A stretch of 64,000 nucleotides of DNA. Origin: Clostridia bacterium. Its GTDB lineage: Bacteria > Bacillota > Clostridia > Oscillospirales > CAG-272. Under the pieces are notes generated by a model that did not search any database, had not been told where the DNA came from, and saw nothing but the letters and a program-made list of their open reading frames with translations. The translations under genes and the position numbers were made by a program. Every line of letters begins with the position of its first letter. The first letter of the stretch is position 1. Where the stretch lies: assembly GCA_017938885.1 (NCBI GenBank), contig JAGBAS010000093.1, forward strand, positions 3,190-67,189, written 5' to 3'. Shown here piece by piece: positions 1,378 to 55,700 of the stretch.

Positions 1378-2193
1378 TTACTCGCCGTCCCTCTCCTTAC
1401 TCTTTCTCATAGCAAGGCAGGCTGCAATCACCGTGAGCAGTCCTACGACACGAACACCAAGAACCGAACCACAGCCCTTCTTCTCGCCCACGTTCGGGAC
1501 GGTGTCGCTCTCCTCCACGGAGGTATCCTCGGCAGGTGCGCTTGTGTCGGCAGGAACCGTCACCGCTTCGGTTTCGGTCGTTTCGTCCCAGGGAGTATCT
1601 GTGCCAGGGTCATCCGCACCGGGGACTCCTACCAAGATTTCGGGAGTAGGCGTTCCCTCACCGTCGGTGTAGATCACCACATCAGTGATCTTGGTCACGG
1701 AGTAGGTCTCACCCTGAATGGGGTTGGTCATGGTCTCATAAGAGGCGTTACTGACATTCTGCGGGTTGAGCAACAGTACCTTGACGTAGCGGTAGGTGCC
1801 CGCAAGTGGCTCGTTTCCACTTCCGGGATACGCAGCCTTACGGATTGAAGTATCCGTTATGACAGTCCAATGGATACCATCGTTAGAGCCCGACACACGG
1901 AAGTGTGGAATAACGGTCCCCTTGAGGGGCGAGATGGTGATGTAGGTCAGTTTGTGTGCCGCTCCTAAATCAAAGACGAAGGTCTGATAGACGGTGAAGC
2001 CCTTGGCCACGCGGTCGTTCACCATATGCTCGAACTGACTGCCGCAATCGCAACCGGGATAGTTGCAAATCGTGGTGGAGACATTGGAGAACGCCTGCCA
2101 GTTGGTGTCACCCAGCCAGAAGAAGGGGGTACCGTCGGCGTGCTTATAGTATCGCTCGCCCTTCTCTACAGTAAAAAAGCCGTGTTGGGACAC
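1378..2193 (-). CDS. Mosaic surface-protein remnant: short GH140/DUF4038-like N-terminal stub, F5/8 type C (discoidin)-like module, acidic T/E/P linker, C-terminal GCGS-TM-basic anchor
   Basis: GFFTVEKGERYYKHADGTPFFWLGDTNWQAF...RVAKGFTVYQT resembles the start of DUF4038 enzymes. It switches abruptly to a discoidin-like segment (HFRVSGSNDGIHWTVITD...TYRYVKVLLL). The ORF has a GTG start, no signal peptide and no spaced RBS, with a stop 10 codons upstream. The C-terminus is KKGCGSVLGVRVVGLLTVIAACLAMRKSKE. Confidence 0.5.
   Translation of the reverse strand: MSQHGFFTVEKGERYYKHADGTPFFWLGDTNWQAFSNVSTTICNYPGCDCGSQFEHMVNDRVAKGFTVYQTFVFDLGAAHKLTYITISPLKGTVIPHFRVSGSNDGIHWTVITDTSIRKAAYPGSGNEPLAGTYRYVKVLLLNPQNVSNASYETMTNPIQGETYSVTKITDVVIYTDGEGTPTPEILVGVPGADDPGTDTPWDETTETEAVTVPADTSAPAEDTSVEESDTVPNVGEKKGCGSVLGVRVVGLLTVIAACLAMRKSKERDGE
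1715..1759. repeat. 45-bp direct repeat, copy 1 (partner at 61156-61200, 44/45 identical)
   Basis: tgaatggggttggtcatGgtctcataagaggcgttactgacattc here, against the same string with A at the capitalised position at 61156-61200. Both copies are on the same strand. Confidence 0.9.
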
Positions 2194-2223
2194 CTCCGTG
2201 GTCTTTGGATCAGGAGATACTCA

Positions 2224-2660
2224 AACAGATTTTTACAGCAGGGCTCGTACTCCTCCCGTTCCTCTCTGGATTCACGGTAAATGCTGGATAACACGTCTCC
2301 AAAACCCGGGTTCAGCCCGCCTTTATAGTAAGGCGTATTCAAGAGGACCGATACGAGAGATCTTTCCTGCGCCGAATCCAGAAAAAAGCCTTACACGTAT
2401 CCGCTGCTTTTTGCCACAATACTCTCTTCGTACCACGCATCGGGACCGATCAGCAGCCATTCCCCAGCGGATACCGGGATCGCTCCACCAAAGTTCATGG
2501 TGTAGGACGTGGTTCCTTCGGTTATGTAATGAAACTCGTAGTATGAATGGACGTGATTATCCGTAAATAACTTATTCGAATGATAGATCAAGTGGATAAA
2601 AACAATTTGCGCGTCGGATATGCTGATCGTTTGTTCGGCCTCATAAGCGAATGCTCCCAT
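2224..2660 (-). pseudogene. AraC-family regulator remnant (cupin sensor domain only; in-frame TAA; no HTH domain)
   Basis: MGAFAYEAEQTISISDAQIVFIHLIYHSNKLFTDNHVHSYYEFHYITEGT... is an AraC-type cupin with a GGAAGGA RBS. The frame continues for about 55 codons past an in-frame TAA at 2391-2393, then ends at 2221-2223. No helix-turn-helix follows. Confidence 0.55.
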
Positions 2661-2691
2661 AAACAATTCCTTCCGATCAGTTTGTATATCT

Positions 2692-2720
2692 ATTATAGCA
2701 CAAAAGCCGCAGGAATGCAA
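2692..2720 (-). promoter_or_regulatory. Sigma-70-type promoter for the AraC remnant
   Basis: The minus strand reads TTGCAT-N17-TATAAT with a TGc extended -10, about 30 nt upstream of the ATG at 2660. Confidence 0.5.
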
Positions 2721-3132: not shown

Positions 3133-3151
3133 TATGGACAGATGCCATAGG

Positions 3152-4570
3152 TTACTGAATCTCGAATTCGATGGCCACAGGATCATCGTAGCCACCGGTG
3201 GGATACCAAAGAATCTTATACTTGCCGGGGACAAAAGAGTACGCGCTTCCCGTGGTATAAACAACGTCTCGCAGATCAAATTCCTCGTCTACAGGGATAT
3301 TCCCTTCACCCACGTAGCACCAGCCATAACCGGCGTAAGCACCGTTCTGCTCAACGTGAAGCTCCAACCATGCCTGGGTGCCGGCGGCTGCCTTCGCGAT
3401 AATCGTCTCGTCGGAAGCAAAGACTGTTTTGTTGAGGGTAAACTGTCCTTCAACGCCGACGATTCCGGCCTCGGGCTCAGGGGTCTCGCCCCCTTCATCC
3501 TCAACGACCGTAAACGTGATCCATACATCGTCCAGCGAGGTGCCGGTTTTGTTAACTACAACGGTATACTCACCGGGAACAATGGCGAAGGTGCCTTGCA
3601 CGACCTGCGTGAGGTCACCGCTGGAATTGGGTCTGGGCAATACGTTCTTGTTCAAGCCGTAAGAGGCATTGCTGCCATCCACCAGGCACCACGCCCAACC
3701 GCCGCCTTGGGGGGCAGTGGGATGCTTGATGTTGAACTGAGCGCCGGCGGGCAGATCGCCAAAGGTGACCATGATCGGCTCGCCGACAACGTATTCTTTT
3801 TTGTCAATGTGGAAAAGCTCGACACCGTTGTAGGTAGGAGCATCAGGCTCGTCATCACCCCCATCATCTTCGCCGCCTTGGGCCTCAACGACCGTAAACG
3901 TGATCCATACATCGTCCAGCGCAGTACCCGTGTGGTTCACTACGATCGTATACTCACCGGGAACAATGGCGAAGGTGCCTTGCACGACCCGAGTGAGGTC
4001 ACCGCTGGCATTGGGTCTGGGCAAAGCATTCTTGTTCAAGCCGTAAGATGCATTGCTGCCATCCACCAGGCACCAGGCCCAACCACCGCCTTGGGGGGCA
4101 GTGGGATGCTTAATGTTGAACTGAGCGCCGACGGGCAGATCGCCAAAGGTGACCATGATCGGTTCACCAACCTCATATTCGGTTTTGTCAATGTGAAAGA
4201 GCTCGACACCGTTGTAGGCAGGAACATCGGGCTCAGGCTCGACGGGATCGGTCTCGGATGCATCGGTATTGACCTCCTCGGTGGTAACCTCCTCGGTGGT
4301 AACCTTTTCGGTGGTAACCTCCTCGGTGGCAACCTCCTCGGTGGCAACCTCCTCTGTGGTCGTTTCCTCGGTCGCGTTATCGTCGGTTGCAGCCTCTGCG
4401 GTAGGCTCCTCCGTAGGCTCCTCAAAAGACGTTTCAGACGAAGCCTCGGTAGGATTTCCGGCACCTGTACTGTCTGCGGTAGTATCAGAACCGACAGGAT
4501 CCTCTGTACACGCTGCGACAGTCAAAGCCACCGCCAGTGCCAAAAGAGTGACTATAAGCAGTTTTTTCAT
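3152..4570 (-). CDS. Lipoprotein of unknown function with a TEEV-type linker and three tandem copies of an uncharacterised beta-rich domain of about 110 aa
   Basis: Lipobox MKKLLIVTLLALAVALTVAAC. There are two near-identical units (YNGVELFHIDK.EY.VGEPIMVTFGDLP.GAQFNIKHPTAPQGGGWAWCLVDGSNASYGLNKN...) and a diverged third unit at the C-terminus. Confidence 0.8.
   Translation of the reverse strand: MKKLLIVTLLALAVALTVAACTEDPVGSDTTADSTGAGNPTEASSETSFEEPTEEPTAEAATDDNATEETTTEEVATEEVATEEVTTEKVTTEEVTTEEVNTDASETDPVEPEPDVPAYNGVELFHIDKTEYEVGEPIMVTFGDLPVGAQFNIKHPTAPQGGGWAWCLVDGSNASYGLNKNALPRPNASGDLTRVVQGTFAIVPGEYTIVVNHTGTALDDVWITFTVVEAQGGEDDGGDDEPDAPTYNGVELFHIDKKEYVVGEPIMVTFGDLPAGAQFNIKHPTAPQGGGWAWCLVDGSNASYGLNKNVLPRPNSSGDLTQVVQGTFAIVPGEYTVVVNKTGTSLDDVWITFTVVEDEGGETPEPEAGIVGVEGQFTLNKTVFASDETIIAKAAAGTQAWLELHVEQNGAYAGYGWCYVGEGNIPVDEEFDLRDVVYTTGSAYSFVPGKYKILWYPTGGYDDPVAIEFEIQ
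3490..4234. repeat. Tandem in-frame duplication inside the lipoprotein gene, period 384 bp
   Basis: accgtaaacgtgatccatacatcgtccagcg occurs at 3507 and again at 3891. The flanking DNA is near-identical by eye over more than 330 bp. Confidence 0.8.
4272..4361. repeat. Coding 15-bp tandem repeat x6 (T-E-E-V-T/A linker)
   Basis: The unit acctcctcggtggta is repeated six times with small variations. Confidence 0.9.
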
Positions 4571-4670: not shown

Positions 4671-7600
4671 TCACTCGGTCAGCACGATCTGATCCCCGTC
4701 ATACGTATACCCGAGCTGATACAGCTCAACGTAGTCAATCTTGAAGCTGTTGGCACGCTCAAAGATGGCGCAGTTGCCTTCTACCGGCACAAGAGCGGTA
4801 TGGCCCTCGGTTGTCAGCACGACATTGCCCTCTGCATTCAAAATCTCGGCGTAGCGGTAGGTCTCTGCCTTCCAGCTTTGGACATCATCACGGCCTATGT
4901 CAGAAAGCTTGACGGTAGCAACCAATTCGCCCTCGACATAGATGATAACGGTATCGCCCTTGTCCTCATAGCGGACAGTTGCACCCTCGTCAAAGGACAC
5001 GCTTTCGGGCAGGGTGAAGGTATAGCCTATGGAGGTAGCCTTCCGTATGCGAGATGTATCCTTCACATGGATAGCAACCTCCAGCGAGTTGCCATAGGGA
5101 TAGAGGAAAATGCCGCTGACACCCAAGTAGGAGGAGGTGTCAAGGTCGCCGTTATCGGGCTCGTACATGGCGGCTTCTGTGTTGTTCAGCTCAACAGGGA
5201 TACGCAGACCGATGGCTGTGCGGTATGCATAACCGGTATTCGCATAACCGCCCGTAATCAAGTGAGTCTCGAAGGCATAGTAACGCAACTCGTTGAGGTA
5301 GCGAATACAACGACCCTTGCTCCACGTACCGCAGATCCAGCCATCCTCCATGGTGAGGTACTCAAGGACCTCTAACCCTAAAGCCTTATCCACATCGGAT
5401 ATGGTGCCGTCAAAGTCTTCACGAAGGATCAAACCCTCCTTCACAGGCTTCTTCCCGGTGTCAATGCAGACCAAGGTCCACTCGCCTTTCAAAGACAGGT
5501 GCGGATCTCCGCCCTTGACCTCGGCATATTCCACACGGATGGCGTGGTAGCCCTCGCTGAGGAGGATGCTTCCCTTGGCGGTTTTGATACCGCTCTTTGC
5601 CTCGGGGTCATAGGTGCCATCGACAACCAGACGTCCGTCGATGAAGAGCTTGGCACCATCGTCATAAGAAAGCGCAAACTCATAGCTCTTAGCCTCGGAA
5701 ACCTGTACGTAGCCTTCGTAGAGCAAGCCTATGTTGGCGGTGTATGGCAATCCCTCGGCGGTCAGGGTCTCCACCGCTTGACTGCCCTCACGGAGACCCT
5801 CGATCAAACGGAAATCGGGCTGGGCGGGGTAATTCTTCACCAGCGGATAGTAGGAAACGATCAGACCCGCCTGCAAGAGTGCCTTGTCCTCGTCCGAAAT
5901 GGTCACGGCGGGCATACCATCAATCACGTTGCCATCGCGGGCAGGAAGGATGGTCTCACCCTTACCCGTGTACCGGATAGCCTGCTCGTAGGCATAGTTA
6001 TTGCGGCGTTCGGGGGCGCTGTCGCCCGTGGTGAACCAGGATTCCAGATCATACACGTCGGTGACGTTGTCCATCCAGTGGAAGTTGACGGTAACACTCT
6101 CCCCTGTCAGACCTAGAAGAGAGCGGGGAATGGTCACGGTGAGCTTGTTGCCCGATGCGGCATACGCCACCGTACCGATCTCCTGCCACACGCCGTCCTT
6201 GTAGGCGCAGAGGGTGGTGACGGTGTCGGATACCACCTCGTAGTTGACAAGGTAGTCGTAGCCCTCCCAGCCCGTGGTCTTGTCGGCGTCGGCATCGATG
6301 AAGAGCAGCATCCAGCTCTTGCTATCCTTGTAGGCGGTCATCTCTTTCGCGGTGCGGACGTAGAAATAGATGCTTCCGCCGTCGGCGGTGATGCGGGATT
6401 CCACGATGTCGTTGCGCCCCGTAGTATTGACGTACTGAATGCGTCCCGTGGTGTCGGAGTGGTCGCGGTGGGTCGTGTCGTTTTCAAAGTCGGTGTAGAC
6501 GGGGGAGATCTTTTCCCAGCTCTCAAAGACAGCGGGATCGGTCTCAGCCATGGTGTGGGCACTCGATGTGCCGTCGGCGGGAAGAACGCCCTTGAAGCGG
6601 CGGATGATGGCGCACATCTGGTAGAAGTAGTTGTCGGTAAATCCGCCCTTCATGGGCTCAATGTCGCGGGAGAACTCGGGGTTGAACTGATCCACAAATC
6701 CCGTATCGGTACCCTTGTCATCGGGGTGGGTGAAATTCTGGGCCACCCATTCGTTCCAACGGGAAATGAGCAGGACCGGGCACTCGGGATACATATCCAT
6801 GAGCATATCAAAGCTCTTTTGAAAACGAATGCCCTGGCCCATGGTATCGGTTTCCAGAAAAGCATTCAGATACTTCTGAGCCGACAGGGCCTCGCTTCGA
6901 CCCTGCCCGTAGTTTGCAAAGCCCGCCGTGCTGATACCGGCACACTCCGTAACTCGCTTTCCATCCTGTCGTACAACGCCAACGTTGGGAGCGTGGGGCT
7001 CAAATCCGTTATCGACCCAGTAATTTTCCCATCTTCCGTTCACGACCCACGACTTGCGGAAGGTGAGCTTATCCTTGTAGTATTCGTCCTCCAGAATCGG
7101 AAATGAGTTGTACGGGGCTCCGCCCACGGGCTTAATGAGTGCCAGAGGCTTCCCCTCCCAGTAAAACCACATATCCTTGTACTTCTCATCGGCCATGAAA
7201 AGCTCATAGAATTTTCCGATATCGCCGTTCCCTTCAACAGCAGAGCCATAGCACCACGGCACCACATAGGGGGTCATAAGACCCTCGGCACGCATTTCCA
7301 GAGAAGTTTCCAGAAAGACCTTCATGGCATCCTCGTAGAGATACCCGTTGGTCATGTCGAAGTAGAGGAAATCCACGCCCGCCATGGCGAAGTAATACAG
7401 ATCGCGGCGGATCTGCCAAACGTCATCGGCGCGATGGTAGCCGGTTTCAGGCTCTGACCACCAACAGAACTGCCAGCGAGGGCTGTAATCGGGGTTGAAT
7501 GGATTTTCGGCCAATGACTTGGAGTTATCATACTGACAGCCCCCCGCTGCTGTCCAAAGGGTGTAGAACAGACCGACGTACTTCCCTTCCTTGGGGAGCC

Positions 7601-7937
7601 CCGCTTCTTCAGAGGTAGGCAGGACACGGCCCAGAGCATCAGTAGCGGTTTCGTTGTAGTTCCGGATAATGATCTGGGGGGAGCGTCCCTTCTCGGTCAA
7701 CACCTGACCCTCGGGGGAGGCGGGAGTAAAAGTCAAAAGATCCAAGCTCACACTCGGGGGTGTGGGATCCACCATATCCGTCTCTGTTTCGGGCGGATTC
7801 GTCTCGGAAGTGTCCGTCCCGGATGCCGTACCGGCGTCGGTATCCTCGGGAGGGCGATGGTTCGTACACGCCGTAGCCAGTAGCATCATGCCCGCCAACA
7901 AAACGGCTAAACATCTTTTTACAATACTATCTTTCAT
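4671..7937 (-). CDS. Secreted lipoprotein: family-unassigned TIM-barrel glycosidase-like domain (paralog of 20987-24460) plus a PA14 domain
   Basis: The start is reassigned to MKDSIVKRCLAVLLAGMMLLATAC (lipobox; GGAG 9 nt upstream). Motifs shared with 20987-24460 are EGKYVG.FY..W, FD.TNG, WFYWE.KPL, WNEW, SRDIEP and TGRND.VESR. PA14-like segment: SYYPL...YEFALSYDDGAKLFIDGRLVVDG...GYHAIRVEYAE. Confidence 0.8.
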   Translation of the reverse strand: MKDSIVKRCLAVLLAGMMLLATACTNHRPPEDTDAGTASGTDTSETNPPETETDMVDPTPPSVSLDLLTFTPASPEGQVLTEKGRSPQIIIRNYNETATDALGRVLPTSEEAGLPKEGKYVGLFYTLWTAAGGCQYDNSKSLAENPFNPDYSPRWQFCWWSEPETGYHRADDVWQIRRDLYYFAMAGVDFLYFDMTNGYLYEDAMKVFLETSLEMRAEGLMTPYVVPWCYGSAVEGNGDIGKFYELFMADEKYKDMWFYWEGKPLALIKPVGGAPYNSFPILEDEYYKDKLTFRKSWVVNGRWENYWVDNGFEPHAPNVGVVRQDGKRVTECAGISTAGFANYGQGRSEALSAQKYLNAFLETDTMGQGIRFQKSFDMLMDMYPECPVLLISRWNEWVAQNFTHPDDKGTDTGFVDQFNPEFSRDIEPMKGGFTDNYFYQMCAIIRRFKGVLPADGTSSAHTMAETDPAVFESWEKISPVYTDFENDTTHRDHSDTTGRIQYVNTTGRNDIVESRITADGGSIYFYVRTAKEMTAYKDSKSWMLLFIDADADKTTGWEGYDYLVNYEVVSDTVTTLCAYKDGVWQEIGTVAYAASGNKLTVTIPRSLLGLTGESVTVNFHWMDNVTDVYDLESWFTTGDSAPERRNNYAYEQAIRYTGKGETILPARDGNVIDGMPAVTISDEDKALLQAGLIVSYYPLVKNYPAQPDFRLIEGLREGSQAVETLTAEGLPYTANIGLLYEGYVQVSEAKSYEFALSYDDGAKLFIDGRLVVDGTYDPEAKSGIKTAKGSILLSEGYHAIRVEYAEVKGGDPHLSLKGEWTLVCIDTGKKPVKEGLILREDFDGTISDVDKALGLEVLEYLTMEDGWICGTWSKGRCIRYLNELRYYAFETHLITGGYANTGYAYRTAIGLRIPVELNNTEAAMYEPDNGDLDTSSYLGVSGIFLYPYGNSLEVAIHVKDTSRIRKATSIGYTFTLPESVSFDEGATVRYEDKGDTVIIYVEGELVATVKLSDIGRDDVQSWKAETYRYAEILNAEGNVVLTTEGHTALVPVEGNCAIFERANSFKIDYVELYQLGYTYDGDQIVLTE

Positions 7938-8073
7938 CCTGTGCTTCTCCTTTTTTGATATGTGCTTTATATGGACATCCTTCCTTGATCGACGTTCATA
8001 TACAGGCATCCGTAATGGATATATTCACATCCGATTTGGGCTTGCGAAATATCGGGAGACCATAAAGCTTTCT

Positions 8074-10161
8074 TTAAACGGATGATTTCAAACAGATCTT
8101 GTACTCGGCAAAGGACAATTTGGGCACAACGCAGTTGATCCTTCCGTTCTTCACGTCCAATGAGACAACGTCATTTCGAATTTGCCTGTCATTCAGTCGG
8201 TTCATCGACAAAAGACTGTCCGCCCGCAAGCCTTCTCCCCGCGCTTCTCCGTCAAGTACAGGAAACGCAGACAGATCGAGCTCCATTTCGCCATCCTCCT
8301 CTGAACGATTCAACAGATTCAGGATCAAAGCGTCTGCTTGTTCATTGATGGAAAGCTGTACCTGAATCGCGTCATTACGAGTCGGGTGATAATTCTCCAA
8401 AACAAGGGTCTGATACGCTTGCGTTTTCGAGAACATCCGCATAATCATGCCCGCCGCTGTGGGGAACGCTGCCTCCTTGGGGGTCTCAATAACGGATGCT
8501 GCGTGGGTATTGGCAAAATTGTTATAATTAATAAAGTCGATGTCCTGACCGTATCTTTGCCACATCATCATGATAGCGGCAGCGTCCAGCGCGTAGGACC
8601 ACTTACTGAACATGAAGCTCTTTCTATGGCTCAGCTGAGAACGAGGTACCATGTTGTAAACGTCCGCACCGTTGAGGGGAAGCCACTCGGTGTTGCAGTA
8701 GCGGATGGAGGTACCGTGTGCCTCGTTGAACTTGCGGATGATCGCAAGCTTTCTTTGGAGATCATGCTCCTCAAAGCCTCGGTCGGCCAGAAAATCAATA
8801 TCCATGCCCGCGATCTCCACCATGCGTTCAAGCGCTTCGTACCTCGAGCAGTAGGAGATCATTCCGATCTTGATGGTGGGATCGATCGCCTTCATGGTAC
8901 GGGAATACAGAACGCAGGCCTCGGCATATTCCTCGTCGGTGAACCAGCGGAACATCTCGTTGTCCATTTCCCAATATTTCACGTTGTAGGGCTTGACCCG
9001 ACCGTTGGCGATACGTGCGCGACCTCCCTCGGTGGTTTCGTCACCGTTGCAATATTCCACCCAAGCCGCCGCCTCGCGAGCCCCTTGCTCCAGATCAGCG
9101 AAATGAGGAAGATCTCTGCCGTGCTTGCCGCCGGGAATGTTGGGATCGTTCGGATCCGAATTCAAATGCTGAGCAGGAACAAACTCATAAAAACGCTTGA
9201 AAGGGTGGTGCATATTCACACAGATCATGGACTCCGCGCCCACTGCTTCCGCATACGTGGCCAGCTCATCGGTACCAATGTCGTTATACTGATAACCGCC
9301 CCAGAAGTATGAATAAGCAGGGGGACGATGTTGACCCACGCCGTCGCGCCAGTTATAAAAGGATGCAAAGCATCCGCCCGGCCAACGGATGACCTTGGGG
9401 GAAACGTACTTGCCTGCCTCCACGGCACTCTTCTTAAAGCCTCGGACGGCATCCGAGGGGGTGAGGGTGAAGTCGTCACAGACCACCGCCGTGTGGGGAG
9501 GCAGGAGCAGGGCGAAGGTATAGCGGCCCTCGGCGGGGACCTCAAAGGTGCTCTGCACGTCGGTGTACTCGATCCCGACGGGGTTCAGAGCACAGGTCAC
9601 GACGGGGTTTTCGGTGGTGCCTTCCTCATAGATGGCAACGGTCAGCCGCTCACTGCCCGTGATCCGCTTGATCTTACCCTTGAAGGTATAGGTGACGTCG
9701 GGGAAGCAATACTTGCCGTCTTGGGCAAGACCGCCAAGGACATCGCTGTGATTCGTCACCTTCATGGCATAATCCCCATGGCAGGCGTCGTCGCAGTAGC
9801 CGATCCTCACGTCAGCGGTGGGAGACTGCTCAATGACGAAGGTAGCTTCGTCGGTGATCTGTTGGTAGCCCGCCACGCCGGGGAAGGCGAACCAGGCGTT
9901 GTGCTCGTAGCCCGAGTGACACCAGTCGAACACCCGCCAATCCGTCTCATAGCGGGAGGTACGGTCTTTTTCATCCTCAAAGAGATCGTACCAGATCTTG
10001 TTAATCATGCGGTAGGGGAAAAAGGGCTCGAAGCTGCGGTTAAAAAACATCTCCGCTGCCATACCCTCCACCTGGATACCATAGCCCAATTCGATAAAAT
10101 TGGAGGACAGTTTTTTGCTAATCGGAGTGGAATGATAAAAACGGGTAGCCTTTACATTCAT
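8074..10161 (-). CDS. GH51-like alpha-L-arabinofuranosidase (cytoplasmic; no signal peptide)
   Basis: VIRWPGGCFASFYNWRDGVGQHRPP and KYWEMDNEMF match the GH51 RWPGG...W.DG.G and NE acid/base motifs. I prefer the ATG at 10161 (RBS gaaagagagg) over the RBS-less GTG at 10194. Confidence 0.7.
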   Translation of the reverse strand: MNVKATRFYHSTPISKKLSSNFIELGYGIQVEGMAAEMFFNRSFEPFFPYRMINKIWYDLFEDEKDRTSRYETDWRVFDWCHSGYEHNAWFAFPGVAGYQQITDEATFVIEQSPTADVRIGYCDDACHGDYAMKVTNHSDVLGGLAQDGKYCFPDVTYTFKGKIKRITGSERLTVAIYEEGTTENPVVTCALNPVGIEYTDVQSTFEVPAEGRYTFALLLPPHTAVVCDDFTLTPSDAVRGFKKSAVEAGKYVSPKVIRWPGGCFASFYNWRDGVGQHRPPAYSYFWGGYQYNDIGTDELATYAEAVGAESMICVNMHHPFKRFYEFVPAQHLNSDPNDPNIPGGKHGRDLPHFADLEQGAREAAAWVEYCNGDETTEGGRARIANGRVKPYNVKYWEMDNEMFRWFTDEEYAEACVLYSRTMKAIDPTIKIGMISYCSRYEALERMVEIAGMDIDFLADRGFEEHDLQRKLAIIRKFNEAHGTSIRYCNTEWLPLNGADVYNMVPRSQLSHRKSFMFSKWSYALDAAAIMMMWQRYGQDIDFINYNNFANTHAASVIETPKEAAFPTAAGMIMRMFSKTQAYQTLVLENYHPTRNDAIQVQLSINEQADALILNLLNRSEEDGEMELDLSAFPVLDGEARGEGLRADSLLSMNRLNDRQIRNDVVSLDVKNGRINCVVPKLSFAEYKICLKSSV

Positions 10162-10215
10162 CGTGACGGCCTCTCTTTCGAATAAAATCTGCACTTAAAA
10201 AATTGCTTTATACAG

Positions 10216-11637: not shown

Positions 11638-11706
11638 TTTTTATTCCTCCATTTGTTTTTTATGTATTTTTAAAAACGGCCTTATGATAAAGTATCTGAG
11701 CGCAAA

Positions 11707-12717: not shown

Positions 12718-12844
12718 GACAGTCGGCTCCTTCGGGTTATAGTAATTAGTTTACAAATCATCAATAGTATTTTAACACACTTCCATAAAAAATGCACTAT
12801 ACTATTATACAAATCAAGCACAATTAAACAGGAGATTGTCGTTT

Positions 12845-13648: not shown

Positions 13649-13692
13649 GCTGACACCGAGCACACGTCCTGTTGCAATCATTAAAGGCAAAA

Positions 13693-13753
13693 AAGAACCT
13701 AAAACAAACAACAGCCTGTGCCTAATGTTCGTTTTAGGTTCTTACCGGCGGAG
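13693..13753. repeat. Hairpin+GGCGGAG module (f), fused to a recombinase gene fragment
   Basis: Stem aagaacctaaaacaaaca / tgttcgttttaggttctt, then ccggcggag. The sequence after that differs from all other copies and runs into the recombinase fragment. Confidence 0.6.
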
Positions 13754-13799
13754 GGAGTAGGATTCTCATTGAACACCTGTCCAAGCTCCATCCAAACTC

Positions 13800-13988
13800 T
13801 ACAAGGAAGCCTTGGCTCTTGAAGCCCAGATGCTCATCAACTATCTGGTGGATGAGATCGTCATGTATGATGACAAAATAGAGATATTTTTCCATAAGCC
13901 TACGCGGAACAGTCCCGATGAAAGTCGGGGCTGTTTTGTTTATAAGGGGAGGAAGGAAAAATTCGATGTCGAGATATGGATCGTGTGA
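13800..13988 (+). pseudogene. Large serine recombinase, 3'-terminal 62-codon fragment
   Basis: YKEALALEAQMLINYLVDEIVMYDDKIEIFFHKPTRNSPDESRGCFVYKGRKEKFDVEIWIV* is collinear with the C-terminus of 42120-42986. The following 75 nt or so are also shared. Confidence 0.8.
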
Positions 13989-14063
13989 AACAAGCCGTAT
14001 AGACAATTCTGAGGGCGTAGAGCGGCACTTGGAAGCACCTATAAGCCTTACGGGTAAAAAGGG

Positions 14064-14798: not shown

Positions 14799-14825
14799 TC
14801 CGGCACAAGTAACACCTACTATAGA

Positions 14826-46330: not shown

Positions 46331-46375
46331 ACAGGATCCTTTCCCGCCGCGAGGGCGTGGGGATTTTTCTTGTCC

Positions 46376-46404
46376 ATTATATCAAATCATACCACGATTG
46401 TCAA
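46376..46404 (-). promoter_or_regulatory. Perfect-consensus sigma-70 promoter of 43640-46330
   Basis: The minus strand reads TTGACA-N17-TATAAT, about 45 nt upstream of the ATG at 46330. Confidence 0.7.
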
Positions 46405-46455
46405 GAGCAGCTCTGTTTTTTTGGTCACTTCCACCAGGAATTCTTTGGAAATCCC

Positions 46456-46484
46456 TTGACAAATCCCCCGTCTGTCGGTATAAT
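46456..46484 (+). promoter_or_regulatory. Perfect-consensus sigma-70 promoter of 46515-48662
   Basis: TTGACA (46456-61), N17 (aatcccccgtctgtcgg), TATAAT (46479-84). RBS gaaaggag at 46501. Confidence 0.7.
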
Positions 46485-46514
46485 GAAATCACCACTCCGA
46501 GAAAGGAGCTTTCT

Positions 46515-48662
46515 ATGAACCGTACCGTTACACGCCGCGCCCTGCCGTGGCTTCTTGCTCTGCTCATCCTCTGCCCGCTCACCGCCTGCGACAGAGGCAT
46601 TGATCCTGCCGAAACCGCGTCGCCTACCGATGAGGTGACTTCAACCGTCGGAGACCCTGTGGAAACGCCCGAGGACTCCGAAAGCGGCGCCGAGTCCCCC
46701 ACCGAATCCCCCACCGAGACACCCACCGAGACCCCCACCGAGGACGAGACCCAACCGCCCGAGGCCGACGACGGCACCATCCGCTTTGCCGTCCTCAGCG
46801 ACGTGCACATCGGCAAGTCCAACCTCCCCACCGATCCCGCCGATAAATTCGCCGCCGCGCTGGACACCGTCCACCGTGTGATGGGGACTCCCGATGCCAT
46901 CGTCATTGCAGGAGATCTCACCGATCTGGGCACCGATGCCCAGTATCAGGCGTTCAATACCGTTCTGTGGGATCACGTCCCCGGGGACACGGCGGTCTGT
47001 ACCGTCATGGGCAACCACGAGTATTTCCGTGACGGCGTGGTGCGCTTCGGCGGTGAGAGCGCGGCATTCATCAAGGAATGTCAGGATGCCTACCGCGGGG
47101 TTTTGGGTGAGCTGCACACCGATACCGTTGTGGACGGGATGCACATCATCGGCGTCTCCCCTTTGAGCAGCGCAGCTGACTATACCGCCGCCACCGACTT
47201 TCTCTGCGAGCACGTCCGCGCCGCCGCCGAGGAGGATCCCGTCATGCCCATCATCGTCTTCTCCCACGAGGGCTTCGGCTCCCTCCACGCCACGGGAGGC
47301 GGCCGCTTCGGAGCGGAGCTGGACAAGCTCATGCGGGAATACCCTCAAATCATCGCTTTTTCGGGGCATACCCACTACGCGCTGAACGATCCCCGCATGA
47401 TCCGTCAAAGCCTTATCACCTCCATCCAGACCTCTACCGTGGGCGCGGATTTCTGGAACTACAGCGGCATGGATCCCGCCCAGCCCGAGGGACGGGAGAC
47501 CGCCTCCCAGGGTCTTTTCGTAGAGGTCAGTCCCGACAAGGTGGTGACCGTCACCCGCTATGATTTCACCAACGATACCGCTATCGGGGAGGCGTGGGTG
47601 ATCGATGTCCCCGCCGTGGTGGAGTCCCGCGAGTCCTTTGCCTACACCGATGCCCGCAAGGATGCCGCAGAGGCTCCCTTATTCCCCGCGAACGCCAAGG
47701 CCGAGGTGAGGGGGATCACCTCCTATACCGCCACCCTCACCTTCCCCGCCGCTACGGTGGAGGATACGGTCTCAGACGGCTGTATCACCGCTTACTGCGT
47801 CGAGGTCAAGGATAGGGAAAGCGGCGCGGTCTACTTCTCCAAGTCCTTCCCTGCCGACAGCCACATGGGCAATGCCGCCAAAGAGCAGCTTACCGTTGAG
47901 TTGACAGGGCTGGAGCACGGGGTTGACTATACCCTCACGGTCACGGCCGAGAGCGCGTGGGGCAAGGTCTCCCGGCCCTTGACGGTGAACTTCTCCACCC
48001 CCAAGGATGAGAGCGCGGCTCCCGAACAGATGCCCGACAGGCTTCTCCACGTGGATTACACCACGGGTTCCCCCGCCGACACCGTCTCAGGGCTGACTAT
48101 GGAAACCTTTGGCACCCCCGTTCTGAAGGACGGCATGGCTGTTCTGGATAAGGAGAGCGTCTACGGCTACCACCTCACCGATAAAGAATACGCTGCCCTG
48201 ACGAATCAAGTCTCCATCGAGGCCACCGTCTACATTGACCGCGATCAGACCTACCCCTGGGGTTACGTCATGATCGTGGGCAACGCCGAGGCCGGGGGCT
48301 ATGACATCGCCGTGGTCAATGGCAAGGGAATGCAGTTCGAGGTCAATATCGGCGGCACCTACAAGCAGGTCGTCGTCCCCACGCCCTTCGGCCGCTGGGT
48401 TCACATCATCGCCTCCTACGATGGGCAGAACCTTCGTATCTACCTGGATGGTGAACTGGCCGCCTCCACCCCCTGCTCGGGAAGCATCAAGCACGTGGGA
48501 GAGAAGTCCCGCAAGCTCATGGTGGGTGCCGACGTCAACCAGGACGGTGTTCCCCAGTGCATCTCCAACATCAAGATCACCAAGGTCTCCCTCTACGCGG
48601 GCGGGATCTCGGCGGAGCAGGCAGCGGTTCTCTTTGCGGAGGCCGAGGTACCTACCGCATAA
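46515..48662 (+). CDS. Secreted lipoprotein: calcineurin-like metallophosphoesterase with C-terminal LamG/concanavalin-like domain
   Basis: Start at MNRTVTRRALPWLLALLILCPLTAC (lipobox); the 128-codon upstream extension in the ORF track is rejected. FAVLSDVHIG, IVIAGDLTD, VMGNHEY and FSGHTHY are phosphoesterase motifs. C-terminal LamG-like segment: WVHIIASYDGQNLRIYLDGEL. Confidence 0.8.
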   Translation: MNRTVTRRALPWLLALLILCPLTACDRGIDPAETASPTDEVTSTVGDPVETPEDSESGAESPTESPTETPTETPTEDETQPPEADDGTIRFAVLSDVHIGKSNLPTDPADKFAAALDTVHRVMGTPDAIVIAGDLTDLGTDAQYQAFNTVLWDHVPGDTAVCTVMGNHEYFRDGVVRFGGESAAFIKECQDAYRGVLGELHTDTVVDGMHIIGVSPLSSAADYTAATDFLCEHVRAAAEEDPVMPIIVFSHEGFGSLHATGGGRFGAELDKLMREYPQIIAFSGHTHYALNDPRMIRQSLITSIQTSTVGADFWNYSGMDPAQPEGRETASQGLFVEVSPDKVVTVTRYDFTNDTAIGEAWVIDVPAVVESRESFAYTDARKDAAEAPLFPANAKAEVRGITSYTATLTFPAATVEDTVSDGCITAYCVEVKDRESGAVYFSKSFPADSHMGNAAKEQLTVELTGLEHGVDYTLTVTAESAWGKVSRPLTVNFSTPKDESAAPEQMPDRLLHVDYTTGSPADTVSGLTMETFGTPVLKDGMAVLDKESVYGYHLTDKEYAALTNQVSIEATVYIDRDQTYPWGYVMIVGNAEAGGYDIAVVNGKGMQFEVNIGGTYKQVVVPTPFGRWVHIIASYDGQNLRIYLDGELAASTPCSGSIKHVGEKSRKLMVGADVNQDGVPQCISNIKITKVSLYAGGISAEQAAVLFAEAEVPTA

Positions 48663-50288: not shown

Positions 50289-50558
50289 TCAGTCCTCGAT
50301 GATAAGCCCCAGGGCCTTGAGCTTTTCAATGATCGCCGCGACGTCCGCCCGGATGACCGCGGGATCCTCCCCGTAGTCCTCGCTCATGATGCTCACGATG
50401 TCTTCGACGTCCTTACCTTCGGCCAGCATATCCCAGATCTCCCCTCCGGTCGGTGTCAGGACGTACAGTCCGTTCATTTCGCCGGCGGCCTCGCCAACGG
50501 GCACCAGCATATCCTCGTCTGCGACACAGCGATGGATCACGTTTTCATTCACCTTCAT
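50289..50558 (-). CDS. PqqD-family protein (RiPP recognition element)
   Basis: MKVNENVIHRCVADEDMLVPVGEAAGEMNGLYVLTPTGGEIWDMLAEGKDVEDIVSIMSEDYGEDPAVIRADVAAIIEKLKALGLI is a typical PqqD pattern. The start overlaps the rSAM stop by 14 nt. Confidence 0.8.
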   Translation of the reverse strand: MKVNENVIHRCVADEDMLVPVGEAAGEMNGLYVLTPTGGEIWDMLAEGKDVEDIVSIMSEDYGEDPAVIRADVAAIIEKLKALGLIIED

Positions 50559-51681
50559 AACAATCCTCCTTGAGGGGGTATTTTTTCCGAATGGCCTCGG
50601 CCAGCTCATGGGTCATGCGGCAGACGTACTCGGGGCGGATATCGGTCCTCCCCGTTTCGGACAGGCAGGCCGCCGCGCAGAGGGGGCATTGTGCTCGAAG
50701 GGCGCACTCGCGGCAGGCGGCAGGTAGCAGGATCGCGGCGGTATCCCGTCGGGTAGCCTCCCAGGCCTCCGCGAAGCTCATGTGCTTCAAATCATACCCG
50801 TCGGTGGGGAACATCCCGCAGGGGAGCATACGGCCGTCCCACGTGACCCAGAAATTGGTCTTGCCCGCCCGACAGCTCATCCGTTCCCCCTGCCCGTCGG
50901 TACAGTCCTCCGTGGGGTCGTGGGGCTCCGTCGGAACCATATCTCGGATCTGCTCGGGATCCATGTATTGCTCGCGGCAGAGCAGTGTATGAGCGGCGGC
51001 CTCCTCCGCCGTAAAGCGACACGCCGCCTCTCCGTACGCGCCGCCGTTGATCCGGGACGGAGGGAACATATAGGCAGTCCCCTTGACCACCAGGTCATTC
51101 TCCCGCGCGAAGCGGTAAATCTCCGGGACGTCCTTGGCATTGATCGGAGTCACGGAAGCATTCAGGCGGACCTGGATCCCCGCCTCCCGCAGCATACGGA
51201 TATTGGCCGCAACGGTATGAAAGCTTCCCTGCCCGCACAGCGCTCGGTAGGTCTCGTCCGAGGCGCCGTACAAGGAGATGTTCATTCGCAAGGGAGGGTC
51301 CTTTTTGAAGAACGCCACCCAATCGGGATCGATCAGGGAAGCGTTGGTATTGATGGAGATGAGCAGGCCCAGCCTCTTGAGCCCGCTGTAGATCTCCCGA
51401 AAGTCCTTTCGGATCAAGGGCTCCCCTCCCGTCAAAAGGAGGAACACCATGCCGGCGTCACGGGCCACCCGCCCCAGCTCCAGCCATTCCCGGGCCGTCC
51501 ATTCCTCCTCGGCTCGCACGGTCTGGTGAACGTAGCACATACGGCAGTTGAAATTGCATCGGGGCGTCAGCTCAAAATTGCCCGAAAGGGGGATGCCCCT
51601 CGCGGAAGCCTTCGCGTGGATGTATTGGTTCCACAGGGGCTCGATCCCGCGGGGCGTTTTCATTTTTTCATTCATATCCAT
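50545..51681 (-). CDS. Radical SAM / SPASM-domain peptide-modifying enzyme
   Basis: CNFNCRMC (CX3CX2C, residues 42-49). LLLTGGEPLIR. SPASM region: CRAGKTNFWVTWDGRMLPC (C-x12-G-x4-C) and CRECALRAQCPLCAAAC. The start overlaps the stop of the upstream gene. Confidence 0.85.
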   Translation of the reverse strand: MDMNEKMKTPRGIEPLWNQYIHAKASARGIPLSGNFELTPRCNFNCRMCYVHQTVRAEEEWTAREWLELGRVARDAGMVFLLLTGGEPLIRKDFREIYSGLKRLGLLISINTNASLIDPDWVAFFKKDPPLRMNISLYGASDETYRALCGQGSFHTVAANIRMLREAGIQVRLNASVTPINAKDVPEIYRFARENDLVVKGTAYMFPPSRINGGAYGEAACRFTAEEAAAHTLLCREQYMDPEQIRDMVPTEPHDPTEDCTDGQGERMSCRAGKTNFWVTWDGRMLPCGMFPTDGYDLKHMSFAEAWEATRRDTAAILLPAACRECALRAQCPLCAAACLSETGRTDIRPEYVCRMTHELAEAIRKKYPLKEDCYEGE

Positions 51682-52445
51682 TTTTCCAGATCCTCTACGG
51701 CGGAGGGATGGTCGATACAGTCGTAGGAGAAGATCGGCACGTGAGCGATCAGATCCATCAGGAGGGAGAACATACGGTCCACGCTCCTCCCGTCGGTCTC
51801 GTCATAGGAGCACTGGGGCATGAGCCGCGTCAAGGCTTGGGACGGCCTGCACCGCTCCACACAGTTTTCCGCGCCCTGTCCCAGCAGGATGATGGCGCGG
51901 ATCGGAGCGGTAACATTCGCCGTCAGATGGGCGCTTCCCGTTGCCCATGCGCCCGACGCCATATAGATCCCGTCCTTCTTATGGATCATCACCCGATCCT
52001 CGTTGACCACGGTGCTTCCCCGTTCCCTTTCCCAGTAGCGGGCCTGGGTCGATTTCCCCGTCCCGCTGGGCGCGGAAAACAGGATGGCCTTGCCCTCGTG
52101 CAACACGTAGGAGGCATGGAGCAGGCAGGCACCGTGCTCCGGGAGCAGATCCGCCACGCGGGCGGCGATGAACAGGTTGGCCACCGTGATCTCGGGGAGC
52201 AGCTCGGTCCTCATATATACGGTGATCTCGCGTCCGTTCCTTTCGGTGATCACGGGCCAGGCATCCACGGGATGTCGATCGGGACCAAGGGGACGGACGA
52301 GCAGGACGTGATCGGGCAGCTCCGAGGGCTCCGAGGAAAACGCCTCGAAGCGGGCATCCTCCCGCATGGGGACAGGCGTCTCCACCCGAAAGGTCAGATC
52401 TCCGAAGGTATACTGCTTAATGATGGGGGGATGTCTCTCGTTCAT
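51672..52445 (-). CDS. HPr-kinase-C-terminal-like P-loop protein (HprK-related)
   Basis: CLLHASYVLHEGKAILFSAPSGTGKSTQARYWE...VVNEDRVMI has the HprK-like fold pattern with a P-loop. Confidence 0.65.
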   Translation of the reverse strand: MNERHPPIIKQYTFGDLTFRVETPVPMREDARFEAFSSEPSELPDHVLLVRPLGPDRHPVDAWPVITERNGREITVYMRTELLPEITVANLFIAARVADLLPEHGACLLHASYVLHEGKAILFSAPSGTGKSTQARYWERERGSTVVNEDRVMIHKKDGIYMASGAWATGSAHLTANVTAPIRAIILLGQGAENCVERCRPSQALTRLMPQCSYDETDGRSVDRMFSLLMDLIAHVPIFSYDCIDHPSAVEDLEKWI

Positions 52446-52460
52446 AGTTCCATATGGGCG

Positions 52461-52495
52461 AAAAGCACCTCCCCTCTACGTGGGGGAGGGCTTTT
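52461..52495 (-). terminator. Stem-loop with a short U-run between precursor and maturase genes (candidate leaky terminator or attenuator)
   Basis: The minus strand reads AAAAGC-CCTCCCC-cacgtaga-GGGGAGG-t-GC-TTTT. The core is 7 bp of perfect GC-rich stem, extended by 2 bp and A-U pairs. Confidence 0.55.
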
Positions 52496-52506
52496 CTCAG
52501 GTATCA

Positions 52507-52746
52507 TTATGATTCGAATACGTTGTTATCCGCGGTGGGAACATGATAGCAGAACTCGCTGTCAGATGTGATGTCACAGCCTTTCATGAAAATGATGAAA
52601 CCGTTATCGTCATATCCGCAGCTTTGCCCGTCAGAAAAGGTTCCCACGTGACGGCAGCCGGACGATGCGTTGGAACTCAAAGAAAATTCAACGGCCATGA
52701 CGTCAGGCTTGGTATAAACTTTCGTCTTCTTACTGTTGTTCTTCAT
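52507..52746 (-). CDS. Candidate RiPP precursor peptide (79 aa; Lys-rich leader; core with 4 Cys and many Asp/Glu/Ser/Thr)
   Basis: MKNNSKKTKVYTKPDVMAVEFSLSSNASSGCRHVGTFSDGQSCGYDDNGFIIFMKGCDITSDSEFCYHVPTADNNVFES, with Cys at residues 31, 43, 57 and 66. RBS gaggaaagga. It is the first gene of the cassette. Confidence 0.6.
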   Translation of the reverse strand: MKNNSKKTKVYTKPDVMAVEFSLSSNASSGCRHVGTFSDGQSCGYDDNGFIIFMKGCDITSDSEFCYHVPTADNNVFES

Positions 52747-52780
52747 AGTGTTCTTATCCTTTCCTCAAAGGTCGTACCGA

Positions 52781-55700
52781 TCAAGAGCGCTTACGGCCTA
52801 CGAAAACGTAGGCTGCAAGCATGGCAATCGCAACCAGAGATCCCGTGCCGATCACGGAGCCGCATCCGGCCAGATCCTCGGTCGGTTCCTCCGTCAGGCC
52901 TTCGGTTTCACGCGCACCGTCAGTTTCGACAGGCGCAGGATCCGTATCTGTCACAGGCGCGTTTCCATCGGCAGGTTCGGTCTCGTCCGCGGTCTCGTCC
53001 TCAGCGGTCTGTTCCCCGTCGGGCTGACCCAGGTTGTCAACGGGAGGCTGACCGTCTCCGTCGTCGGGCAGGGGCTCGACTGCGGGGGGAGCGATCTCGG
53101 TCTCATCGCCGTCCACAGGCTTATCCCCGTCGGAAGCACCGCCGTCCGCCTCGGGAGCGCCGGAGCTGTACAGCAGGGCCATGACCTCGATACCCTCCGA
53201 AAGAGTCTCGGGATCCACCACGGGCCGGACCATGACGCCGTCCTGCTCAAAGGTGAACTTGAAGCCCGTGAAGGAGATCACGGAGGAGGTGTCGTGGAAG
53301 TACTCCCGATCGCTGTGGGAGAAGGTGATGACAGGGGTCTCGTAGTAGGCCACCTCACCGTTCTCGTCGGTCACGGGGGTCCAGGTGATGTGGTTCATAG
53401 GATAGAACATATTGGCTGCGCCATGGACGTGGAGGAAGTCGTGGGCACCGTGCTTGATGACGCCGTCGGTACCGACGGCCATCTTCACGCCGATGTGGGT
53501 GGCAGTCGGAATGGCCGTAGCGGTGAGCTTGAAGGAGATGCCCTGGCCCTTGGCGAGATAAAGCTCATTGTTGGGGCCGGGATTCTCGTAATCCTTGATG
53601 CTGACCGTAGCGTCCTTACCGTCGATGAAAACCACACCGGGGAGGGTCTCCTGATCCCGGATCTCACCGATCCCCAGGACCAGATCCTTCATGGTCATGT
53701 AGAAGGGAGCATACTCCTTATCGGCCTTATGGGCATTGTCCGCGGTCTCGTTGCCCTTGGCGGGATCGTAAATGCGGATGGAGTCCAGCACGAAGGTACT
53801 GGTGCCGTCGGGATACAGGTAGTCCACACTCTCCAGGAAGATCACGCTGATCTTCACGGTGTAGGCGGCCTGCTCCAGTCCGCTGAGCTTGATCACAGGG
53901 ACCTGCCATACCGTATCCTCGGAGGAAGCGTTGGGCTGCCAGCCCTCTTCCTCGGAGTAGGTATAGCCGTAGTAGTTGTTGACCGACTTGGAGGCGACCT
54001 TATGGCCATCCTTGTCGTATACCGTCACCAGGATGGTGGCGCCCACGTTATCAGTCAGGGAGATGATATCGAAGCCGGTCCCCGTGAAGGTAAAGGTAGC
54101 GGTGGGAGCGGTCCGGGGATTACCCAGATCGAGGTTCACGGTGACGGCCTTGGCACCGCCGTTACTGAAGGTGGCGCAGGAGGTGTAGGAGGGATCGAAG
54201 CCGTAGACGTTATTGGCGTCGAGGCTGGCGAGATTATTGAAGCCGGGACGGTCCACGCTCTGAGGAGCGTTGGGATCGGCCGTACCCACGTCGGTCCACA
54301 CGCCCAGGGTATCGGTGGCGGCGGAGGAATCCTCAAAGGTGAGGAAGTCCTCCTCAAAGTACATATTGGCGGCGGGGATGACCGTGATGGTACCGTAGTA
54401 GTAGCGACTCTCGTACAGCACCGCATAGGAGAAGATCTCCGGCTCGGTCATGTTGGTGCCCACGCCCTGTCGGAGGGCGTAGCGGATCCCGTTCGGGGTG
54501 ATGGTGGCGGTGCCGAACTTGCCCTCATAGACGGTGCGCAGAGTACCATCCGCGACGAAGGAGGCGGACAGATGAGCCTCGCCGTTGACGCTGGCCGACG
54601 TGGTGTGGGGACCGACGGCGACGATACCGCCCTTGTTGTAGAACATATCGTTCAGAAGGGCCTGGATGTTCACGGGCTGACCGTAGTCGATGACTACCAC
54701 GTCGCTGACGGGCTTGACGGTGTAGACCACGGCGAACCACACGATGGTGTGGGTGTAATCGTAGGCGGGATCGTCCTCCTCCAGCTCGTTGGTGAACTGG
54801 TAGCTGTCGTGACCCGTTACGTAGGTAGAGGAGGTGGGGACGTTGCCCTTACCGATGGTCCAGGCGCTGGCACCCAGAGCGGATCTGACGTGGACGGTAT
54901 AGGTCGCGTCCTTATCGTAGAGCTCGTAGCCCTCGGGCAGATCCTGCGCGGCCAGCTCGGCGGCGTTCAAGGACACCGTGGAGTTGAGCAGGGCATAGAA
55001 GGTGGGGGTGGTGATATTCAGGCGGTTGGCGAAGGAGCCGGTCATGCCCATCTCCTGATTGACCAGGGACAGACCGTTCTCATCTACCAGGTAGAAGGCA
55101 TAGCGGACGGACGCGGCCTGCCACGGGATCTGGGGAGACACGGTCTCGCGGTAGGCATCGTTACCCAGCCAGTTGGTGTAGTACAGGATCGCGCTCTGGT
55201 TGGTATTGTAGGTGCCGGGCTCCAGCTCGCCCTCCATGGAGCCGTCCAGATAGACGTAGTAGGACAGCACCATGTCATGCTGGTTGATGGTACCCATATC
55301 CCAGTAGAAGGACTCGTTGGCCAGCAGGTAGTCCTCGGTGCCGTCCAGATCCGAGTCGATCATCACGGAGTAGTCGTTGGTGTTGTACCAGAAGTGACGG
55401 GCATAGATAACGCCGTTTTGCATGATGTTTCCGCCGAAGATGCTGGAGTATGCCTCGGTACCGTCGGCGTTGAAGGTGACGGTCTCCACCACGGTGCTCA
55501 TTCCGTTACGGGTACCGATCTTATCGTGGGGGATGATACCCGCCTCCACGTCGGCGTGGGTGTACAGACCGTACAGGGTGAACTTGATCTCGGGCAGGAT
55601 GCTGCGGTTCTCGAAGCGGCCCTCGCTGTTCAGGAACCTGTAATCCACCCGGGACATCTGAAGGTCGAACTGCTTGCCCATGGTGTCCACGAAGTAGGCA

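Follow-up and report, generated by a model that had tools for sequence, protein, structure and literature searches.

A Gly-Cys tail at the C-terminus of exported proteins from uncultured gut Clostridia, a candidate Firmicute variant of the cysteine-containing tripartite sorting signals

Cysteine-containing tripartite sorting signals have so far been described from Myxococcota and Bradymonadales, from the hosts of JDVT-CTERM, from Synergistota and from Thermococcales, with none reported from Firmicutes (10.1101/2023.06.07.544157). Each of them has been tied by comparative genomics to an intramembrane protease of the CPBP/Rce1 type (10.1101/2023.06.07.544157), and in the bacteria studied they go together with type II secretion through an outer membrane. 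Cys-dependent cleavage by a CPBP protease has been demonstrated for MrtX (PMC11980579) and inferred for three other signals of this type (10.1101/2023.06.07.544157). For MYXO-CTERM, Haft described a housekeeping sorting enzyme that serves many targets and is not encoded beside them (10.1101/2023.06.07.544157). Here, we describe a Gly-Cys tail of comparable layout in a stretch of 64,000 nucleotides (the window) from an uncultured Clostridia bacterium (assembly GCA_017938885.1, contig JAGBAS010000093.1). A preliminary description of this DNA had noticed the tail at four C-termini and had named MYXO-CTERM and its CPBP-type protease as a parallel, in agreement with the published work (10.1101/2023.06.07.544157; PMC11980579). 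In the literature, no description was found of the clostridial tail, of a Firmicute Cys-type signal, or of a 'lipo-invert' or C-terminal lipobox concept.

The tail reads K-[KSG]-G-C-[GSR]-S-x-[LIV]-G, followed by ~21 small-residue-rich hydrophobic residues and a closing RKKKE/D. It thus consists of a signature with an invariant Cys, a transmembrane segment and a basic cluster at the extreme C-terminus, which is the layout that defines the tripartite Cys class. In the window, it forms the last 30–35 residues of each of four long open reading frames (ORFs) on the minus strand. The four peptides quoted in the preliminary description were reproduced exactly from that strand, while reading the same ranges on the plus strand gave nonsense peptides. 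Tail 1 (EKKGCGSVLGVRVVGLLTVIAACLAMRKSKERDGE) lies at 1381–1485 with its Gly-Cys codons at 1471–1476, tail 2 (AKSGCSSAIGITCTGIVLTTGAAVALRKKKETQ) at 17829–17927 with Gly-Cys at 17913–17918, tail 3 (KKKGCKSSVAVGGLVVVAVMGASALTLRKKKESEV) at 20990–21094 with Gly-Cys at 21080–21085, and tail 4 (LAGCGSVIGTGSLVAIAMLAAYVFVGRKRS) at 52784–52873 with Gly-Cys at 52862–52867. Against a tail profile of 37 positions built from 41 tails, they scored 40.8, 47.9, 39.7 and 30.3 bits, respectively.

The four carriers, all encoded on the minus strand, belong to mutually different families. Tail 2 ends an exported protein of 998 amino acids (aa; 17826–20822) with a type I signal peptide (..LQSFA/EE), a conserved N-terminal domain and CHB_HEX_C_1/Fn3_assoc domains. 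Tail 3 ends an exported protein of 1157 aa (20987–24460) with a type I signal peptide (..LPVIA/ED) and no Pfam domain, and tail 4 an exported protein of 2031 aa (52781–58876) with a type I signal peptide (..LGVFA/EG) and a long acidic linker. Tail 1 belongs to a 271-aa ORF (1378–2193) that combines an N-terminal apiosidase stub, covering positions 2–54 of the 320 in the Pfam profile and running straight into a partial F5/8 type C domain, with a linker rich in Pro, Thr and Glu. This ORF has no signal peptide and is preceded by in-frame stop codons; it is probably a deletion remnant or pseudogene in which the tail has stayed intact. The term "four surface proteins" used earlier therefore fits the three intact carriers but not this truncated relic. 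Likewise, the acidic or P/T-rich linkers said to precede all four tails were found as described for three, but in the 998-aa protein the linker, though acidic, is not P/T-rich. None of the tails contains LPXTG, in line with the original observation. When ORFs of at least 100 aa in all six frames of the window were scanned for a hydrophobic helix together with K/R in their final 45 residues, the only real genes returned were these four, the 4 further matches being antisense ORFs. The four carriers are the complete set of C-terminally anchored proteins of the window.

Position statistics were drawn from 62 non-redundant tails that had been chosen for Gly-Cys, so that Gly and Cys are fixed by construction. 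Positions −2 and −3 before the Cys were mostly K, S or G and also E. Position +1 was G, S or R (Gly in 50%), +2 was Ser in 77% and Pro in 0%, +4 was L, V or I, and +5 was Gly. The distance from the Cys to the basic cluster ranged from 17 to 27 residues with a median of 21, and the end segment after the helix comprised 4–13 residues including about four K/R. The hydrophobic part was rich in Ala, Gly and Ser, with Pro accounting for 2% of the helix residues. Together, Ala, Gly, Ser and Thr made up 52% of the tail helix; the value for helices in polytopic membrane proteins of the same loci was 29%. Conservation of the Cys among orthologues, the absence of which had been named as evidence against the idea, was evident: the 1157-aa protein is 86% identical overall to its orthologue in locus L007, and in this pair the linker and helix have been rewritten with insertions and deletions while G-C-[KR]-S and LRKKKE are retained. 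Tails of neighbouring paralogues were alike.

The tail profile was searched against 1.84 billion representative proteins (clusters at 50% identity), and 660 protein clusters were matched at E ≤ 0.001. Among the best 148 of the 660, the match lay at the extreme C-terminus in 145 and contained Gly-Cys in 146. The dominant form among the profile matches was K-x-G-C-G-S-V-I-G-F-[GS]-A-x-A-I-L-A-A-A-A-A-A-V-A-L-K-K-K-D, and many of the complete matched proteins started with a signal peptide. The 55 longest matches carried unrelated domains, namely Laminin_G_3 (LamG), Flg_new, BspA-type leucine-rich repeats, CHB_HEX_C_1, NAGPA, rhamnosidase C, F5/8 type C, Big_2, LTD and GH30 C. On six-frame ORFs from 572 kb of related loci, the profile found 41 ORFs at E ≤ 1e-3 with the match ending at the ORF terminus, and reversed decoys gave 0 matches at E ≤ 10. 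Among ORFs of at least 150 aa in ~0.5 Mb of related loci, Gly-Cys was present in 32 of the 41 C-terminal helix-plus-basic tails; at least 4 of the 9 others were the last helices of polytopic transporters, and the rest were single helices of unassigned proteins. The motif was thus far above chance expectation. Other searches were less productive. Word-indexed protein searches with tail alignments yielded just 4 and 49 short fragments, none of them from a cultured organism, and a metagenome scan with the tail alignment matched 600 stretches, none of which was supported by tblastn. Of the 17 metagenome loci found with a degenerate DNA pattern for KGCGSVIGF, only 2 were real tails.

The link between the tail and export was examined in homologues of the 998-aa protein, 142 of which were obtained at E ≤ 1e-10 and 120 of which were read, with three weak signal peptides corrected by eye. 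Of 43 homologues with a signal peptide, 38 ended in a Gly-Cys tail, 3 in a Cys-less helix tail and 2 in no tail, whereas the 77 homologues without a signal peptide comprised 0 with a Gly-Cys tail, 76 with a Cys-less helix tail and 1 with no tail. On the uncorrected automatic counts, the association of Gly-Cys with the signal peptide gave p = 2e-21 in Fisher's exact test, a value that overstates independence because the groups are clades. That Gly-Cys accompanies export is expected if the Cys works at the outer face of the membrane. With the 41 terminal ORFs against 0 decoys and the 660 clusters, this strict association excludes chance as the origin of the motif. The Cys-less tail of the 76 homologues (among P0035–P0120) has the form KGI(L/V)PAAVATLAGAVAG..KKKK. 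The 77 homologues lacking a signal peptide begin directly at the conserved domain, which leaves their membrane topology puzzling.

Taken together, these data speak for a single tripartite module at the C-terminus that is conserved and portable, has an invariant Gly-Cys and is carried by many unrelated exported proteins, as the preliminary description had proposed from four examples. Within the window, the module is an alternative to the N-terminal lipoprotein anchor: the complete exported proteins have either one or the other. Eight other complete exported proteins carry an N-terminal lipobox Cys and none of them has a C-terminal tail. Seven are encoded on the minus strand (3152–4570, 4671–8009, 10216–11637, 14826–17615, 24624–27194, 32171–38854 and 43640–46330) and one on the plus strand (46131–48662, from an internal start). 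A ninth lipoprotein gene crosses the left edge of the window, so that its C-terminus lies outside the view. The sole other exported case is a membrane-spanning LuxR-type regulator (39400–41793, minus strand).

To place the tail among curated families, NCBIfam release 20 was run on the 4 window tails, 42 homologue tails, ten profile-matched proteins or fragments and ten selected tails. No model reached its cut-off on any tail examined, and Pfam assigned no tail domain in the full-length proteins. The highest-ranked curated model was Synerg-CTERM (TIGR04564), with a best score of 20.7 bits against a cut-off of 22.5 and matches to 5 of the 42 tails. JDVT-CTERM (NF033191) reached 22 bits (cut-off 27), MYXO-CTERM (TIGR03901.2) 13.9 bits (cut-off 20) and LPXTG_anchor (TIGR01167) 13.2 bits (cut-off 15.9), while TIGR03901.2 and TIGR03382 matched 1 of the 42 tails each with E values of 0.03–0.05. 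Repeated near-threshold matches that covered the Cys itself came only from Synerg-CTERM, JDVT-CTERM and MYXO/GC_trans_RRR, so that the MYXO-CTERM parallel is echoed, below threshold, by the Synerg-, JDVT- and MYXO-CTERM models. A fragment orthologous to tail 4 (P0308) bears the label 'TIGR03382 family' from the Joint Genome Institute (JGI), which indicates close resemblance to the old Gly-Cys/transmembrane/Arg-Arg-Arg model. By contrast, the Firmicutes-specific domain that had also been mentioned (Firmicu-CTERM, TIGR04145) did not appear among the matches listed for 46 tails at E ≤ 10, where one of the 26 weakly matched families, matching at most one tail, was not displayed. NF058595, the 'lipo-invert putative C-terminal anchoring domain', matched no tail; its sole match (15.9 bits, cut-off 37) was to the N-terminal lipoprotein signal of P0131.

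Comparison with the individual systems showed the same pattern of partial likeness. MYXO-CTERM (TIGR03901/TIGR03382 'GC_trans_RRR', myxosortase MrtX) shares with the tail the Gly-Cys, the transmembrane helix and the basic cluster at the extreme C-terminus. Both occur on signal-peptide-bearing surface proteins, with many unrelated targets and no enzyme beside them. MYXO-CTERM differs in its GCGC motif and Arg-rich cluster, whereas the clostridial tail has a single Cys followed by G/S/R and Ser and a Lys-rich RKKKE/D. Its hosts are Myxococcota and Bradymonadales with type II secretion, unlike the Clostridia, which presumably have no outer membrane. Synerg-CTERM (MrtS) resembles the tail in its small Ser/Gly-rich signature, which has a single invariant Cys and leads almost directly into the helix. 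It differs in that its Leu-rich helix contains an invariant Pro, in its tie to a special type II secretion system and in a host from another phylum; Pro is scarce in the tail helix. JDVT-CTERM (MrtJ) and CGP-CTERM (Thermococcales, MrtA) are likewise tripartite with an invariant Cys, and their inferred partner is a CPBP-family protease. However, JDVT-CTERM is characterized by a DP motif and by one target encoded beside the protease, whereas the tail has no DP and many targets, none of them seen adjacent to such a gene, and CGP-CTERM requires Cys-Gly-Pro, in contrast to the predominant Ser at +2 of the tail. Judged from its sequence, the tail belongs to the Cys-containing class as a dedicated C-terminal module that is portable and lies outside any curated family, and both its host range and its envelope type are new for that class.

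These results are best explained if the tail is a new variant, from Firmicutes, of the tripartite sorting signals that contain a Cys. That it is a processed signal of this kind we hold to be about an even chance. The proteins would be exported by Sec through the N-terminal type I signal peptide, which is itself evident by sequence. The helix and K/R cluster would then act as a stop-transfer segment that keeps the protein in the cytoplasmic membrane, with the Gly-Cys facing outwards and the basic cluster on the cytoplasmic side. Retention in the membrane by the helix and K/R cluster is well supported by topology rules and by the strict link to the signal peptide. In a third step, the Cys thiol would be lipid-modified and an intramembrane endopeptidase would cut just after the Cys, so that a C-terminal lipid anchor would take the place of the helix. 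The enzyme may be a CPBP/Rce1-type relative of the 'myxosortases', encoded elsewhere. By analogy with the known systems, we infer lipidation of the Cys and cleavage by a membrane protease of the CPBP (CaaX protease/bacteriocin-processing) family. Processing is favoured by the invariance of Gly-Cys-x-Ser against a drifting helix, by the abundance of small residues in that helix and by the protease precedent for Cys-type signals. Small-residue-rich helices also occur in other cleaved sorting signals.

No multi-pass membrane protein is encoded in the window, and hence no processing enzyme is encoded there. Across 33 genome loci, the multi-pass ORFs near tail genes encoded transporters, a YidC fusion, a histidine kinase or small proteins that could not be assigned, and Pfam-annotated contigs around four further tail genes contained no PF02517, rhomboid or sortase. 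Since the MYXO-CTERM enzyme is also encoded away from its targets, the missing neighbourhood enzyme counts as weak evidence either way. Radical S-adenosylmethionine (SAM) genes adjoin tail genes both in the window and in locus L040. These genes are not homologous to each other and the one in the window belongs to a ScmC/PqqD peptide-maturation cassette, so a functional link was rejected and the adjacency regarded as coincidence.

Several points weigh against a processed Cys-type signal. Every score against the curated Cys-type models fell below cut-off; no CPBP, rhomboid or sortase-like gene was seen beside tail genes in ~0.6 Mb of loci; the homologue counts are phylogenetically non-independent; and the three signal-peptide homologues with a Cys-less helix indicate that plain anchoring can substitute. 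In Myxococcus and Synergistota, a type II secretion step gives removal of the helix its purpose. The clostridial hosts presumably have neither the outer membrane nor the type II step that makes this removal useful, and the benefit of exchanging a helix for a lipid in such monoderm bacteria is therefore uncertain.

Some of these points lend weight to a different explanation, that the tail is a plain, unprocessed transmembrane anchor which spread among paralogues by domain shuffling and kept its Gly-Cys for a reason other than cleavage, such as interfacial helix capping, GxxxG-like packing of G(+1)xxxG(+5) or S-acylation without proteolysis. The Cys-less homologues show anchoring alone to be viable, the enzyme search in the window and around tail genes was without success, the hosts presumably have no outer membrane to cross, and the similar tails of neighbouring paralogues fit shuffling or gene conversion. 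However, a simple anchor does not readily account for the conservation of Gly-Cys and Ser(+2) in unrelated families and hundreds of clusters in which the helix itself drifts, nor for the unusual abundance of small residues in that helix relative to stable membrane helices. Moreover, all previously studied tripartite C-terminal signals with an invariant Cys are protease-linked (10.1101/2023.06.07.544157). We regard the unprocessed anchor as possible but rather unlikely.

The preliminary description had likened the Gly-Cys to a lipobox placed at the C-terminus, and one could imagine the ordinary lipoprotein machinery acting on it, with Lgt adding diacylglycerol to the Cys and signal peptidase II (Lsp) cutting at Gly-Cys, so that the protein would be freed in a regulated shedding instead of being held by a lipid. 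The likeness is genuine as far as the Gly-Cys pair goes: Gly(−1)-Cys(+1) with a small +2 residue fits the lipobox core, tail 4 even reads L-A-G-C, a perfect lipobox, and the pathway is evident in this organism, with at least 9 lipobox proteins encoded in the window. In addition, both elements place Gly-Cys at the outer interface together with a hydrophobic helix and a cytoplasmic basic cluster, as mirror images of each other. The comparison fails elsewhere. Positions −3/−2 are mostly the polar residues K, S and G, or E, rather than L and A/S/T; the hydrophobic segment follows the Cys at the C-terminus, an order inverted with respect to the N-terminal lipobox and a geometry inverted for Lgt and Lsp; and the residues after the Cys are G/S/R and then Ser, in contrast to T/A/D/N at +2 in the lipoproteins of the window. 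Furthermore, the tail proteins carry type I and not type II signal peptides. Action of Lgt and Lsp on the tail is accordingly improbable.

Least probable is a divergent sortase signal with cleavage near the Gly-Cys and attachment to peptidoglycan: the Gram-positive host and a C-terminal helix with a basic tail after a P/T/E-rich linker are shared with the LPXTG signals of sortase A and the NPXTG signals of Ruminococcus, the helix and basic cluster weakly match LPXTG_anchor (13 of 42 tails) and Rumino_NPXTG (12 of 42) and one fragment was named 'LPXTG-motif cell wall-anchored protein' by JGI, but these sub-cut-off matches span the helix and basic cluster and not the Cys, the tail has a Cys signature directly at the start of the helix in place of an LPXTG/NPXTG-like pentapeptide, no LPXTG-type tail was seen on exported proteins in the ~0.5 Mb of related loci, and no sortase gene was seen near the tail genes. 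The separation of the tail from LPXTG signals drawn in the preliminary description is thereby upheld.

Under the processed-signal reading, a broader proposal can be made, which we offer tentatively and with less than even confidence: monoderm gut Clostridia may run a 'C-terminal lipoprotein' pathway, consisting of a myxosortase-like CPBP protease and a thiol lipid transferase, which would also yield dually lipidated mini-peptides. If so, hundreds of glycan-degrading enzymes and adhesins would bear lipid anchors, and Firmicutes would have their first C-terminal sorting system of the Cys type, which would also be the first to work without type II secretion. Were a clostridial version widespread, the Cys-type sorting logic would reach Gram-positive gut bacteria, and the retention of large polysaccharide-degrading enzymes among the tail carriers at the surface would be explained. 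The tail could also serve as a potential annotation marker for surface proteins that are now 'hypothetical' in rumen and gut metagenome-assembled genomes (MAGs), and may offer a route to function for an orphan CPBP protease, of which Firmicutes have many.

A group of small proteins deserves separate mention. Nineteen clusters among the best 148 profile matches (P0124, P0126, P0131, P0144, P0158, P0216, P0237 and others) were complete mini-proteins of 62–112 aa that consisted only of an N-terminal lipobox signal, a disordered T/P/E/A linker and the Gly-Cys tail. If processed at both ends, such a protein would become a short peptide lipidated at both termini.

The 33 genome loci carrying the tail came from MAGs labelled Clostridia, Eubacteriales, Oscillospiraceae or Clostridiales, with one stray bin labelled Erysipelotrichaceae, and their sources were the guts of deer, goat, sheep, horse and human (UMGS285). 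All named cluster members were entitled 'MAG: hypothetical protein [Clostridia/Clostridiales bacterium]', so that every named source was an uncultured Clostridia gut MAG, and no cultured organism carrying the tail turned up in the protein and profile searches. This is probably why a curated model is lacking. In the human-gut MAG UMGS285 (L036), three Gly-Cys-tail proteins of 1383, 1081 and 946 aa are encoded at 5832–19348 beside sugar ATP-binding cassette (ABC) permeases, which indicates that the signal is present in human-gut Clostridiales too.

The window itself, with a G+C content of 54%, is a glycan-utilisation region and matches ruminant-gut metagenome contigs and the MAG GCA_017626655.1. 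The 2227-aa lipoprotein at 32171–38854 (minus strand) contains dozens of Cys-rich repeats of the 'TCT..GYTTYTC.CG' type together with BspA-type leucine-rich repeats. In the 797-aa product of 39400–41793, a signal peptide is combined with PMP-type repeats, a Listeria-Bacteroides repeat, a single transmembrane helix and a LuxR-type helix-turn-helix domain on the cytoplasmic side; this protein seems to be a one-component regulator that spans the membrane and has a large domain outside the cell.

The 2031-aa tail gene is immediately followed downstream by a peptide-maturation cassette (50289–52746, minus strand) composed of a 79-aa Cys-rich ORF (52507–52746), a ScmC-like protein (51672–52445), a radical SAM enzyme (50545–51681) and a PqqD-like protein (50289–50609), all on the minus strand. 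The arrangement is kept in L064–L067. It looks like a SynChlorMet-type locus for a ribosomally synthesized and post-translationally modified peptide (RiPP) and is probably unrelated to the tail. Finally, the C-terminal fragment of a serine recombinase at 42120–42986 (plus strand) and IS66 TnpB-like remnants at ~61.3–62 kb, as annotated in the matching contigs L064/L065, point to past mobile-element activity between the glycan loci.

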